From a virus (lineage: Duplodnaviria; Caudoviricetes): a DNA stretch of 64,000 bases. The stretch spans positions 32,001 to 96,000 of the IMG/VR virus record IMGVR_UViG_3300029288_005873. The stretch is one strand, 5' to 3'. The notes under the pieces were generated by a model. The model worked only from the letters and a program-made list of their open reading frames with translations, did not search any database and was not told the origin of the DNA. This document shows positions 54,829-63,932 of the stretch, one piece after another. A program made the position numbers and the translations under genes. Each line of letters starts with the position of its first letter. Within the stretch, counting starts at the first letter, position 1.

Positions 54829-55362
54829 TCACTTTGCTGGAACAAGCATGATTGATATGTCCTTATCGCCTATTTCAGCTGCTTTTTCGACTTTATATTT
54901 TGTTTCGTCAAGCAGTTTGACAAATCTTTCAAGAACATCTCTGCCCGTTTCGGTCATATGATTTTTTTCCCTACCCTTAAATCTCACAACGATTTTTACG
55001 CGATCGCCCTCTCCTATGAACTCGAGTGCTTGTTTTGCCCTATACTCAAGATCATGATCATCTGTATTTGGGCGGATCTTAATTTCTTTTGTCAACTGTT
55101 GTGTAGCTTTTGAAGCCTTATGCCTTTTCGACTGTTCATATTTCCATTTGCCTAGGTCCATAATTTTACATGTAGGAATACCATTTTTTCCTTCCCCAAC
55201 CTGAACAAGATCAAGACCAGACGATTCAGCCATTCGGTATGCATCCAATGTGTCTAGCACACCAAGATTGGATCCATCCTTATCAATTAGAAGAACAGTC
55301 CTTGACTTTATTGCACGCTCCGTTCTTTGGTTTCTATTACCAAAATCTCGCATTCTTCTCAC
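54829..55362 (-). CDS. infC: Translation initiation factor IF3
   Basis: LID..G.NLG, LDLV, CKIMD.GK.KYE, KEIK.RP....HD, VK....F.GRE. Confidence 0.93.
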   Translation of the reverse strand: MRRMRDFGNRNQRTERAIKSRTVLLIDKDGSNLGVLDTLDAYRMAESSGLDLVQVGEGKNGIPTCKIMDLGKWKYEQSKRHKASKATQQLTKEIKIRPNTDDHDLEYRAKQALEFIGEGDRVKIVVRFKGREKNHMTETGRDVLERFVKLLDETKYKVEKAAEIGDKDISIMLVPAK

Positions 55363-56340
55363 TTTCCAAAATTGCGGGGACCCGCACTGCTGTCAAAATG
55401 TTTCTTCGCCAATACCACTGGAATCATATGTACTTGAAAAGGTTCATCTGGTTCTTGGAAACATGAGGCAACAAAAGCGTTCGGATCTCCACAGGTTTCC
55501 TTTGCCTTATTGATGATATCCTCAGGCATAACCTCATGTGGATTCATATAAACCCTGAACATGCCATCATCATATGGTACATAATATATCAAAACGTCAG
55601 CGCAACTTGGATCTGATTTTGTTCCAAGAAGTACCGATCCAATTTTTCTCCTCAGTCCTTCCTTAACTAGAAGAAAGCCTACATCAAGCTCTCCTCTTTG
55701 TTTTCTTATCACTGGTATTATGGAAAGAATGTCAGGAGTCCTATGCTCACAAATTTTACATCCATCTTTGTGTGGAACTATTGTACCACCCCTACCATCT
55801 CCTTTAAGATTGACCCAATGCGCATTGAATAAGAGGGAAGGTCCTATAATCCTTACAATTGTTGGACCATCACAGCTTGGTAGGAAAAGCTGCGGCTTAC
55901 TTAGTACAGATTTTACAGCTATGAGTCGAACCGGATTTACTAATATATCATGGATCATCTCTAGGATATTGTTGTCAATTGATCCTATGATATCAAATAT
56001 CTTTTCATTCTTATCCAGGACATAAGGCATAACGCATATTGAAGAGTCATTTAAGTTTGTCGACACAACAAACGTCAGATGACCATTCAGACCGGCTTTC
56101 TTAAGCATGGACATCGGCACACGTAACCTGCCCGCACTAATAGAGACCTTGCCTATTGGATTCTTACACGATTCAGATAGCACCAATGAGCAGGTGTCAC
56201 AACAAACTGTAATCACCTGTTTATCTTTCCACCCCATAAGTCGCACAATCCTATGTGGAATCTCTATGCGACCATCTCCTTTTACATGTACGGGTGTTCC
56301 AGACCTTCGTGTGATAAGGTTGGATAGTATTCCCGCCACG

Positions 56341-56351
<11 letters not shown>
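55359..56351 (-). CDS. Hypothetical protein with AbrB-like N-terminal repeats
   Basis: DGRIEIP and GRLRVP motifs. Confidence 0.45.
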
Positions 56352-60778
<4,427 letters not shown>

Positions 60779-60814: not shown

Positions 60815-61717
60815 TTAGTATGACATATGGACTGTAAGAAACACTTGGGCTTTGCGGTCAATTCCAACACTTCGAGCTATACTCTCGGCATCCTCTATTT
60901 TTACAAGGATAAATTCAGGAGAAATAGGCAATATACTATTTCCACACCCGTGGCAGGCATCACTAGTTTGAGCAACGCGGAATCCTAAGGCTAGATTACT
61001 ACTACCGTTTTCACTCGATGATATCGAATCAATACAAAATATACCACTGGAATCTGAATCAGAACCATATGGATATTGATCCCTCAATGAGTGCCACAAG
61101 TCATCAGCCGAAATTTCAAGTTCGTCAGCCCATGCTTTGAACTCTGAAGTGGGCTTCTCGATAGGCTTTAGACAAAGTTCTGATCCACATTGGTCACAGA
61201 ATTTGACAGCTAATTTCCCAGTCTTTTTAATTTTGACATGACCGTTCTTACATCCATAGGAAGAACCCATCTCTATGAAAAAGTCCTCCCGTGCTACAGG
61301 CACGCCAATTATGATGTTTCCATACACATTCAACCCCATGGGATTACTCGCAGATTCCCTTTTCCTGTTCGCGCTCTAGAGAGGCAAGGGCAGCTCCCAT
61401 TTCTTTCTTGGATACTTCGATGTCAACTTCTTGCTTTGTCATGTTGCCAAGTTCTTTTTTAATTTCCTCGATAAGTGCTTTCCCGGCCAGGAAATGGGCA
61501 CCAATCCTCTCTTGGAGAGAGCCGGTCTTCTTCGACTTTTCTTTGCGCGGTCTCGGCGTCACAAGTGTTAGAGCACTCACAAGTGTTGCGTGTTCAACAT
61601 CACTGCGACCACGAAGCTTGATGCCAAGAGTCTTTGCCTTTAGAACTACCGTTGCCGTAGAGCAACCAAAAAAGTTTGCAATCTCCGCAATTGTAGATTT
61701 CTCAGTAATAATCGTCA
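60815..61717 (-). CDS. Two hypothetical ORFs (60815-61339; 61344-~61717 with HTH and coiled coil)
   Basis: Tiling on the minus strand. Confidence 0.5.
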
Positions 61718-63817
61718 TTTTTCTTCCTCCTTCGGCAATAGACCAATTTTCCTGCCGAGTGTTTGCCATGCCATAGCCGCAGTAAGAGGCACTACGGCAT
61801 TCCCCAATGTTCTTAATCTATCACTTCTAGAGCACATATGTGGTAGGCTAGTCGTTATTTTTCCCGTCCCTTTTCCTGTTTTACAGGTTGACTGCCAGTT
61901 TCTGAATGCTGACATACGCATGTCCAGTGTGGGGGCAGACCCATTAGCATTTCCACGAATAGCGGGTTTAGCATCATCCGACATCCGCGCCCACCCTTCT
62001 GCGTCGCCAGGCGTTGGAGGGAAGGGCGAATCCGACCAACCCTCCCCGCCGAACCGCCTTGGTTCGATCCGTACTGAGCTGCCGATGGAGTCGGCCAAAA
62101 TTCTGCCACATCTGGTAGCGTCCTGTCCGATTCTGGTCTCGGCTTCCCATCCCTCGTTCTTTTCCTCCAGTCCGCACCGCCCTTGTGATCCCTGCTTGCT
62201 GGCGTCGGCCATTGTGCAGCCGCAGATGGAAGTGTCAGATCTCCCTTCGTTCCGTGCTGATTCGGACCCCCTTTTGTTCCATCTGTCGCTCTCGCGGTTG
62301 GCCATGATGAAGAGTCGTTTTCTGAGATGAGGAGCACCGACTTCTGCCGCGCTGAATATTCCCGCTTCAATTCGGTAATCCATTCCCCAAAGGTCTTCAC
62401 ATACGTCTCTGAACATTGTGTTGAGCAGGTTTGGGACATTTTCGAAGAAGCATACAGTAGGTGACACTTCTCCGACAATCCTTGCGAACTGCGGCCAGAG
62501 GTTTCGGTCGTCTTCTTTTCCGCGCCGTTTTCCTGCAACAGAGTGAGGGGTACAATTGTGTACCGCCATTCCTTCGGCAATGTATGATTCATCTTCCAAT
62601 ACAGAAATGTTCCATACAGTGCCGAAACCACACTGTTCCATGTATCTGACCGGCTTCCATCCGTATATTCCGTCGATAAAAGGTTCACGGTTTCTTGAGC
62701 GGATGTTGAGTTTCCAGGCATCACGCTGTCGGACTGTTCTTCCTTCAATAATACAGGTGTCACTTTTTCTATGACTTTTGATAACAGAACAGACAACTCC
62801 TCTAACGCTTTGTGCGATAAGCGACATTCCCATAGATAGTGCCCTACTGGTGCTACTTGACTCGCGCAACTTGTACGAGTCGTATCCATCTCCAGACAAA
62901 TAGCCTTGCAACAAGGCATTTGCTTTGCGCCAAGGAAGTTCCAAAGCACACCTTGGAATCCGTTTTCCATGGGCCAATCTCCCAAAAGGAAGAAGGAATT
63001 TATACAAGGATGTATCTGTAATATGGAATTTTGTTGCTGTTCGCCCTTCTTCACGATAGGCATGAAAACCTGCGAACGCGATTCTGGAGGCAAGATCATC
63101 AGCTTCCTTATGCCCACAGGTAATGATTGTGCGTCCCATCGGCTTCCTAGTTTTGCGCAATCCTTTCCTGTCGCAAAGATATCCATCGGCGATATATCTT
63201 CCAACAACCCACCAAAATTCAACACTGTGGTTGTCATCGATAATGGCTTCAGGAACAACCTGGCACACCATCTTCCCGCACAAAGATTCTGCGGAAACGA
63301 ATCCCGGTTTGCTGTATATTTTTCTATACTTTCTGGTTGTATTGTCCCATATTTTAGACACATCTCTTGCGTAGAAGGGATGCTCATGTGTTGTGATGAC
63401 ATCTGAACCCTGTGCCCGCACACGCATGAGTTGGGCGTTTTCTCTACACATAATGGATGTAATGGGTTTCCATCTTCCCAGATGTGTAAGGACACAATCT
63501 CCCACACACAATTCTTCAATAGGTCTATACCCAGATTCGGTAAGCACCAATGTTCCAGCAGCGAAGCAGGGGAACCCTCCAGTGATACAATCCACTTTTC
63601 CACGCCAAGGGCGGCCATCGAAGGTGAACACGCTATCCCAGATAGGCGCTTCATCCAAGATCTTTTCTTCCATCCTGGCCACGAGGACCGATGCGGCGTA
63701 AGTTTCAAGCTCGACATAACAAACAGTTCTGGATCTGGGCTCGGCGAGCTTAAGTCCGAGTTCGAGCCCTCCAATTCCTGAGCAGAGGGACAAAATCCTT
63801 GGGGAATATGTAGCCAC
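61715..63817 (-). CDS. C5 cytosine DNA methyltransferase, large subunit, intein-containing
   Basis: Motif I LCSGIGG, IV GGFP|C, VI FFENV, VIII H.RKRLF, X RLRTLGNAVVP; probable GTG start at 63817. Confidence 0.92.
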   Translation of the reverse strand: MATYSPRILSLCSGIGGLELGLKLAEPRSRTVCYVELETYAASVLVARMEEKILDEAPIWDSVFTFDGRPWRGKVDCITGGFPCFAAGTLVLTESGYRPIEELCVGDCVLTHLGRWKPITSIMCRENAQLMRVRAQGSDVITTHEHPFYARDVSKIWDNTTRKYRKIYSKPGFVSAESLCGKMVCQVVPEAIIDDNHSVEFWWVVGRYIADGYLCDRKGLRKTRKPMGRTIITCGHKEADDLASRIAFAGFHAYREEGRTATKFHITDTSLYKFLLPFGRLAHGKRIPRCALELPWRKANALLQGYLSGDGYDSYKLRESSSTSRALSMGMSLIAQSVRGVVCSVIKSHRKSDTCIIEGRTVRQRDAWKLNIRSRNREPFIDGIYGWKPVRYMEQCGFGTVWNISVLEDESYIAEGMAVHNCTPHSVAGKRRGKEDDRNLWPQFARIVGEVSPTVCFFENVPNLLNTMFRDVCEDLWGMDYRIEAGIFSAAEVGAPHLRKRLFIMANRESDRWNKRGSESARNEGRSDTSICGCTMADASKQGSQGRCGLEEKNEGWEAETRIGQDATRCGRILADSIGSSVRIEPRRFGGEGWSDSPFPPTPGDAEGWARMSDDAKPAIRGNANGSAPTLDMRMSAFRNWQSTCKTGKGTGKITTSLPHMCSRSDRLRTLGNAVVPLTAAMAWQTLGRKIGLLPKEEEK

Positions 63818-63819
63818 AT
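61855..63819 (-). CDS. Overlapping alternative-frame MTase subunit (carries motif IX and WPTP repeats)
   Basis: 654-codon open frame; WPTAR/WPTPAS/WPTPS repeats and LNPLFVEMLMGLPPHWT. Confidence 0.75.
   Translation of the reverse strand: MWLHIPQGFCPSAQELEGSNSDLSSPSPDPELFVMSSLKLTPHRSSWPGWKKRSWMKRLSGIACSPSMAALGVEKWIVSLEGSPASLLEHWCLPNLGIDLLKNCVWEIVSLHIWEDGNPLHPLCVEKTPNSCVCGHRVQMSSQHMSIPSTQEMCLKYGTIQPESIEKYTANRDSFPQNLCAGRWCARLFLKPLSMTTTVLNFGGLLEDISPMDIFATGKDCAKLGSRWDAQSLPVGIRKLMILPPESRSQVFMPIVKKGEQQQNSILQIHPCINSFFLLGDWPMENGFQGVLWNFLGAKQMPCCKAICLEMDTTRTSCASQVAPVGHYLWECRLSHKALEELSVLLSKVIEKVTPVLLKEEQSDSVMPGNSTSAQETVNLLSTEYTDGSRSDTWNSVVSALYGTFLYWKMNHTLPKEWRYTIVPLTLLQENGAEKKTTETSGRSSQGLSEKCHLLYASSKMSQTCSTQCSETYVKTFGEWITELKREYSARQKSVLLISENDSSSWPTARATDGTKGGPNQHGTKGDLTLPSAAAQWPTPASRDHKGGADWRKRTRDGKPRPESDRTLPDVAEFWPTPSAAQYGSNQGGSAGRVGRIRPSLQRLATQKGGRGCRMMLNPLFVEMLMGLPPHWTCVCQHSETGSQPVKQEKGREK
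62555..63568 (-). mobile_element. Intein (338 aa) with LAGLIDADG endonuclease
   Basis: Starts CFAAGTLV, block B TTHEHPF, GRYIADG and LQGYLSGDG, ends VHN before the +1 Cys. Confidence 0.95.
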
Positions 63820-63830
63820 GGTTCTCCAGT

Positions 63831-63932
63831 TTATGACATGGCACCAAGAATCAGTGCGAAGCCGAATGCTACCAAACATATGACGCCAAGGACCAGTGAG
63901 GTCCTAACGTTACTTTCTTCTGTCTTTTCCAT
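63831..63932 (-). CDS. 33-aa single-TM peptide
   Basis: MEKTEESNVRTSLVLGVICLVAFGFALILGAMS fills the dut-MTase gap. Confidence 0.45.
   Translation of the reverse strand: MEKTEESNVRTSLVLGVICLVAFGFALILGAMS

Follow-up and report, generated by a model that had tools for sequence, protein, structure and literature searches.

An intein open in the second reading frame of a two-frame viral cytosine methyltransferase gene

Inteins are kept harmless by splicing, yet splicing rescues one reading frame only. How an intein can persist in DNA that encodes two proteins is the question raised by a C5 cytosine methyltransferase gene on the minus strand of a 441,904-base (442-kb) virus record. The gene lies in the window, i.e., the whole 64,000-nucleotide stretch of DNA that was analysed; positions below are those of the window, and all features named lie on its minus strand.

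The two-frame gene and its intein

The gene opens with two overlapping starts, ATGTG (63815 to 63819). The ATG at 63819 begins the second chain, beta, in the +1 frame, two bases ahead of the GTG at 63817 that begins the first chain, alpha, and the start is identical in the intein-less relatives L241 and L242. A Shine-Dalgarno (SD)-like GGAGA (63823 to 63827) is probably common to both starts, with GGAG placed 4 nt before the ATG and 6 nt before the GTG; SD-like purine runs also precede the dual start in relatives. A further in-frame +1 ATG lies upstream of the beta start, at 63879. The database protein P0002 begins at alpha's GTG, and annotation of such genes lists alpha alone, so that beta and its insert are overlooked.

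Alpha (61715 to 63817; Pfam DNA_methylase, 7e-30) is a precursor of 700 aa, or 362 aa after predicted splicing. A motif scan identified the catalytic body of a C5 methyltransferase and motif X (core GNAV, 61793 to 61804), without an in-frame motif IX. Beta (61855 to 63819, 654 aa) consists of 83 conserved N-terminal residues, a 338-aa intein-derived insert and a 232-aa C-terminal part; its intein-less orthologs have 298 to 350 aa and 54 to 66% identity. Within the C-terminal part are three WPTx repeats (62086 to 62304), a putative target-recognition part that is kept in beta homologs, and the putative motif IX equivalent LNPLFVEMLMGLP (61933 to 61971), with an invariant L-N-P and P. The general form of this motif, LNPxFVExLMG, is taken as motif IX on the basis of motif likeness and of its place in the fused relatives P0263 and P0266, in which motif X comes next in the same frame. 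The region itself had no Pfam or PDB match. The beta profile gave a sole match against the PDB, a short one to MS2 coat protein, which was judged spurious.

In all 76 distinct intein-less viral alleles the insertion site is preceded by an open +1 stretch of 78 codons or more, and motif IX lies in +1 in 62 of the 76 and in alpha in none. As this layout is shared by the intein-less relatives, the intein falls within beta, at codon 84. The first-pass annotation had described an open reading frame that starts upstream of the intein and crosses all of it to reach motif IX, and its coordinates (63819 to 61855) agree with those of beta. Genes for IF-3, a Thg1-like tRNA-His guanylyltransferase, GroEL and a DinG-like helicase lie downstream (54829 to 60778), and in L241 and L242 as well the methylase is followed by the helicase. 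Compared to L241, both the window (at about 61930 to 61800) and L242 contain additional sequence ahead of alpha motif X and differ in the beta tail.

The arrangement resembles that of M.EcoHK31I, a two-chain C5 methyltransferase in which the catalytic motifs and motif X belong to alpha and motif IX to beta, encoded in a different frame of the same DNA (PMC2836561). The M.EcoHK31I beta lies wholly inside alpha, with no intein described, whereas beta of the window begins 2 nt ahead of alpha, extends across motif IV, has the WPTx repeats and is interrupted by the intein, and thus represents a fully overlapping variant. Enzymes of the M.EcoHK31I type are further characterized by activity that depends on association of the two chains and by recognition of YGGCCR in a restriction-modification system. 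Association of the two chains was modelled for the intein-less L242. The complex scored 0.82 (best control, 0.07), passing a mark that 58 of 80 solved complexes and 2 of 110 mismatched pairs also attain; runs agreed in at least 62% of contacts, and the partner pLDDT was at least 57. Beta contacts include residues 1 to 6, 53 to 59 and 72 to 84, all upstream of the insertion point, and residues 310 to 334 at motif IX, where contacts are tightest. The model supports binding of alpha to beta in this intein-less relative, and its pass may be due to likeness to solved monomeric methylases.

The intein (62555 to 63568, 338 codons) is inserted into motif IV, after the Pro and directly before the catalytic Cys; its place next to the Cys had been noted at first reading. 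It runs from CFAAG to VHN, with Cys1, block B TxxH, the terminal His-Asn and Cys+1 all present. A HINT domain was matched by Pfam Hint_2 (7e-10), and the NCBIfam intein N- and C-terminal models were slightly below cut-off. Both LAGLIDADG motifs, GRYIADG (63182 to 63202) and GYLSGDG (62885 to 62905), keep the acidic residue; Pfam LAGLIDADG_3 matches close homologs and not the window protein itself. The junctions are clean against L241 and L242, and the 76 empty alleles indicate an in-frame insertion at a conserved site, at which inteins are also carried by phage Dmt and methylase matches. The element has the features of a class 1 intein with a LAGLIDADG endonuclease and is predicted to splice; it may also be capable of homing. 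In these respects it is like the canonical LAGLIDADG inteins of C5 methylases, which are class 1, lie just before the catalytic Cys and have an in-frame endonuclease, as given in a PhagesDB survey (10.1101/2025.01.02.630785). Unlike those, the window intein has a +1 frame that is open throughout, across the splicing domains as well, and that would be read as host protein; no comparable case is described in the passages of the survey that were covered.

Stops in the second frame of the window and its relatives

Four lines of evidence set the open +1 reading of the intein (62554 to 63567, 338 aa) apart from expectation. First, the intein has no stop in frame 0 or in +1, 24 in +2, and 5, 5 and 23 in the antisense frames, which bears out the initial observation that all 338 codons are stop-free in the overlapping frame. 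Second, synonymous recoding with the codon usage of the genome gives 15.6 ± 3.2 expected +1 stops and an exact probability of zero stops of 2.9e-9. Third, none of 20,000 codon shufflings of the intein was stop-free in +1, and the probability remains 1.8e-6 when the intein's own, already biased codon usage is the null. Fourth, the +1 open run is 663 codons here, compared to 148 for the next longest among all genes of the genome.

Two more inteins with endonucleases are present in the same genome (G000:C1:407045-408214, minus strand, 390 aa, and 421088-422506, minus strand, 473 aa), in hosts that appear by eye to be portal protein-like and nucleotide-sugar dehydrogenase-like. They have 16 (390 codons) and 45 (473 codons) +1 stops, which are ordinary counts.

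Chance, base composition or the amino acid sequence of the intein could in principle keep +1 open, as GC-rich inteins go as low as 3 to 4 +1 stops. We give this explanation practically no credence: the GC content of the window intein is 0.45, its equally close homologs have 8 to 21 stops, its +2 frame is far from open, and the intein of L096, with a GC content of 0.34, is also stop-free when about 30 stops are expected. Splicing at the RNA level was ruled out by argument, since neither frame would then need to stay open.

Related inteins were collected by alignment-based scans, a scan of viral contigs with a single protein having given no matches. The scans gave 240 loci, and 8 more were fetched by protein; 207 were parsed, 33 of the 240 scan loci being omitted as not parsed by the intein pattern, and 155 were left below 85% identity. 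No +1 stop was found in 21 of the 155 (7 of these 21 being chosen fetches), which represent 19 lineages with 39 to 52% identity to the window and GC contents of 0.34 to 0.67; the other 134 have 3 to 43. Every one of the 21 stop-free inteins has a host with an upstream +1 start and a frame that remains open for at least 89 codons downstream. In a prediction test set before the DNA was seen, all 7 hosts judged dual-start from protein N termini had inteins with 0 stops, and the single host judged non-dual had 13 +1 stops in its intein. A count of forced-stop dipeptides (Met before I, K, M, N or T) was also tried, and its signal was too weak per protein.

Frequent stops in homologous inteins at this site had been named beforehand as evidence against read-through, and taken literally they are frequent. 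This is not fatal to the reading, because most hosts of stop-bearing inteins have no need of read-through, and the six stop-bearing cases with an upstream +1 ATG and a downstream beta apparently restart beta later. The host association likewise favors the earlier suggestion that stops are purged to keep the second subunit translatable, with the correction that the purge did not take place in this phage. The stop-free trait is common to the 19 lineages and not peculiar to this phage, and it is probably old, inherited and maintained.

Stop-free and stop-bearing inteins are interleaved in the intein tree, with 9 changes, at least 4 of them forced. Grouping of all stop-free inteins in one clade is rejected (AU p 3e-6), which fits either several origins or one origin with losses. 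In the host tree the window belongs to a well supported 9-host group in which 9/9 are stop-free, and stop-free inteins are also found in distant hosts. Because stops are easily gained and 15 are hard to lose at once, we favor an old origin with repeated decay, as read from trees that are not reliably rooted. Conflict between host and intein trees (L092, gut phages) suggests past homing only. In the inteins of L082 and L083 the first LAGLIDADG motif has Cys for Asp, suggesting a weakened nuclease, and +1 is still open.

Motif IX lies in the alpha frame in L002, L005, L016, L098 and their relatives, yet a short beta with a conserved SLSDILE is retained and the intein is stop-free. As motif IX is already in alpha there, beta of these hosts would provide something other than motif IX.

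Composition and constraint of the second-frame product

The +1 readings of stop-free inteins are also distinguished by their composition. Their net charge is −1.3%, compared to +10.3% for stop-bearing inteins, with 10.6% versus 4.8% Asp plus Glu and 4.3% versus 8.5% Arg, and the shift is found in 19 of 19 stop-free lineages after GC correction. Under a synonymous null conditioned on zero stops, the near-neutral +1 reading of the window has 33 Asp plus Glu where 19.6 are expected (P 0.0005) and a net charge of −4 where +12.7 is expected (P 0.001). The source of the shift is synonymous choice: GGA for Gly, AGA or CGA for Arg, and avoidance of NCG. Contrasts between stop-free and stop-bearing sisters have the same direction of net charge (L085, −2.3, and L116, +7.3; L002, −1.5, and L115, +10.0; L097, −3.8, and L095, +7.2). 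In independent-pair tests, underpowered at just 4 to 5 pairs (p 0.25) among lineages that share ancestry, the mean was never in the wrong direction. This neutralization of charge points to translation of the +1 product.

If it is translated, the +1 reading could be a functional domain (a folded or binding module), or it could be excised from beta by a protease, rather than a tolerated loop. Third positions of codons that are unable to form stops show a site-specific excess of likeness in stop-free inteins (0.350, versus 0.290 expected; 0.268 versus 0.253 in stop-bearing inteins), and some +1 residues are present in at least 60% of that group only. In addition, divergence at four-fold sites among gut-phage alleles is lower in the intein (0.27 to 0.39) than in the non-overlapped N terminus (0.53 to 0.71, from only 15 to 17 sites). 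Nevertheless, constraint on the insert is weak, falling between that of non-overlapped DNA and that of the beta core, where divergence is far lower still (0.04 to 0.14), and +1 identity between lineages is 24%, compared to 21% for controls. AlphaFold2 with 19 sequences predicted no fold for the insert (mean pLDDT 34, pTM 0.17), and searches for a family gave no Pfam, NCBIfam or Atlas match (Atlas best 0.86, no lead). We therefore regard a functional or excised domain as quite unlikely; weak constraint with neither family nor predicted fold fits a tolerated, soluble loop. The first-pass annotation had described the insert as 338 aa of de novo sequence without splicing motifs. The splicing motifs are indeed in the alpha frame; the description has to be amended in that the composition of the sequence is shifted.

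The start of beta, the proposed mechanism and known systems

The association between open frame and host has exceptions. About 13 stop-bearing inteins are in hosts with a recognizable downstream beta, a count that is approximate since the beta-motif pattern missed 3 of the 21 stop-free hosts. Six of these (L250, L095, L121, L153, L064 and L217) also have an upstream +1 ATG and yet have 6 to 20 stops in the intein, so that not every host depends on read-through. Among stop-bearing inteins, those in beta hosts have 3′ tails that are open for longer than in other hosts (Mann-Whitney p 0.003), and several stop-bearing inteins have an SD-like run and an ATG about 30 to 50 codons before the intein end. 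Some of them seem to restart beta in their own 3′ end, as a second solution. Open +1 tails over the last 30 to 50 codons were noted in L250, L088, L093, L095, L064, L217 and L222, often with an SD and ATG and a short Gln/Leu/Phe motif like the beta N terminus.

These longer tails are compatible with a start of beta after or near the intein end in the window also (e.g., ATG at 62439, ENV motif), in which case the open +1 frame would be a relic of an earlier host and unneeded now. Precedent is provided by M.EcoHK31I, in which beta does not require its first 42 residues in vitro and starts at internal Met codons yielded partial activity (PMC2836561); the equivalent ATG here is that at 62439. We consider such a late start unlikely. 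The ATG at 62439, the first past the intein, has no SD match, and the 83 N-terminal residues of beta are conserved with intein-less alleles. Moreover, the terminal branch of the window intein is long (0.65 changes per site), and at that length unselected relatives gather many stops (19 in L095, 27 in L116). The charge shift is still intact in the window, and neither it nor stop-freedom would persist over such a branch without selection.

A tract of 6 to 9 G bases is found about 200 nt past the intein in L003, L004, L016, L017, L019, L099, L110 and L111. Its length varies among gut-phage alleles, and in several of them the variation switches the reading from alpha to beta or from beta to alpha, a pattern suggestive of either phase variation of the methylase or an assembly error. 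Such switches downstream of the intein could indicate that the frame is open for another translational reason, namely, a programmed frameshift between alpha and beta, and protection of the mRNA would be a further reason of this kind. Both have very little credence here: the ATG with its SD opens +1 directly, no G tract of this kind is present in the window, a frameshift ahead of the intein would need read-through all the same, and ribosomes translating alpha already cover the whole stretch.

We consider it highly probable that alpha is spliced, that translation from the upstream ATG yields a beta chain retaining the near-neutral +1 reading as an unstructured loop, and that selection holds this reading open. 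One stretch of DNA would then give rise to a two-chain cytosine methyltransferase. Initiation at the GTG would give alpha, from which the intein would splice itself, restoring the catalytic Pro-Cys. Initiation at the ATG, two bases earlier, would give beta, in which the N-terminal 83 residues and the C-terminal motif IX would be needed in one chain. The +1 frame would be open because translation of this second subunit begins ahead of the intein and has to continue to motif IX; beta, being unable to splice, would retain an unstructured loop of 338 residues, the intein read in +1. Both the phage and the intein, which depends on a working host gene, would be under purifying selection that clears +1 stops. 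Synonymous codons that lower the basic and raise the acidic character of the loop (fewer Arg, more Asp and Glu) would also be favored, presumably keeping it soluble and off DNA. The trait would have arisen long ago, moving with the intein between two-frame hosts and decaying in those without a need for read-through.

The ingredients of this mechanism are known separately: methylases encoded in two frames, inteins inserted at this site, HNH insertions free of stops, and inteins whose nuclease lies out of frame. The ShiLan domain and the Pacc40 insertion are out-of-frame HNH genes in phage methylases (PMC11855218). As in the window, a mobile nuclease element is read through stop-free by a methylase chain, as a loop of low confidence that is presumed to be tolerated (PMC11855218). 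However, ShiLan involves no splicing and a single host frame, whereas the window element would leave one chain and stay in the other, the frame being that of the host's second gene. ShiLan-type elements are defined by a shifted-frame nuclease and the lack of a splicing domain; both the splicing motifs and the nuclease of the window element are in the alpha frame. Inteins with out-of-frame or antisense homing endonucleases, including a cyanobacterial dnaX intein, are described in two sources (10.1101/2025.01.02.630785; 10.64898/2026.09.14.751524). Their DNA likewise codes in two frames, but the second frame described there is that of the element's own nuclease, mid-element, whereas in the window it is that of the host, crosses both junctions and has no predicted fold. 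A literature search, with most subscription journals outside its scope, found no description of a host gene whose second frame runs through an entire canonical intein.

The case illustrates the way in which a selfish element deals with a target coding for two proteins. We lean towards the broader view that a widespread intein lineage is specialized for overlapping-gene targets. It would be spliced from one chain and kept in +1 in the second as a selection-tuned insert of 320 to 350 residues (no stops, neutral charge), while sisters would build a new beta start in their 3′ end, and the insert may have a role of its own. One intein family with and without a translated second frame, sister pairs included, would constitute a natural experiment in overprinting. 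It would make measurable the first demands of selection on a new sequence of 340 residues: absence of stops, followed by a fall in Arg and a rise in Asp and Glu, with no fold.
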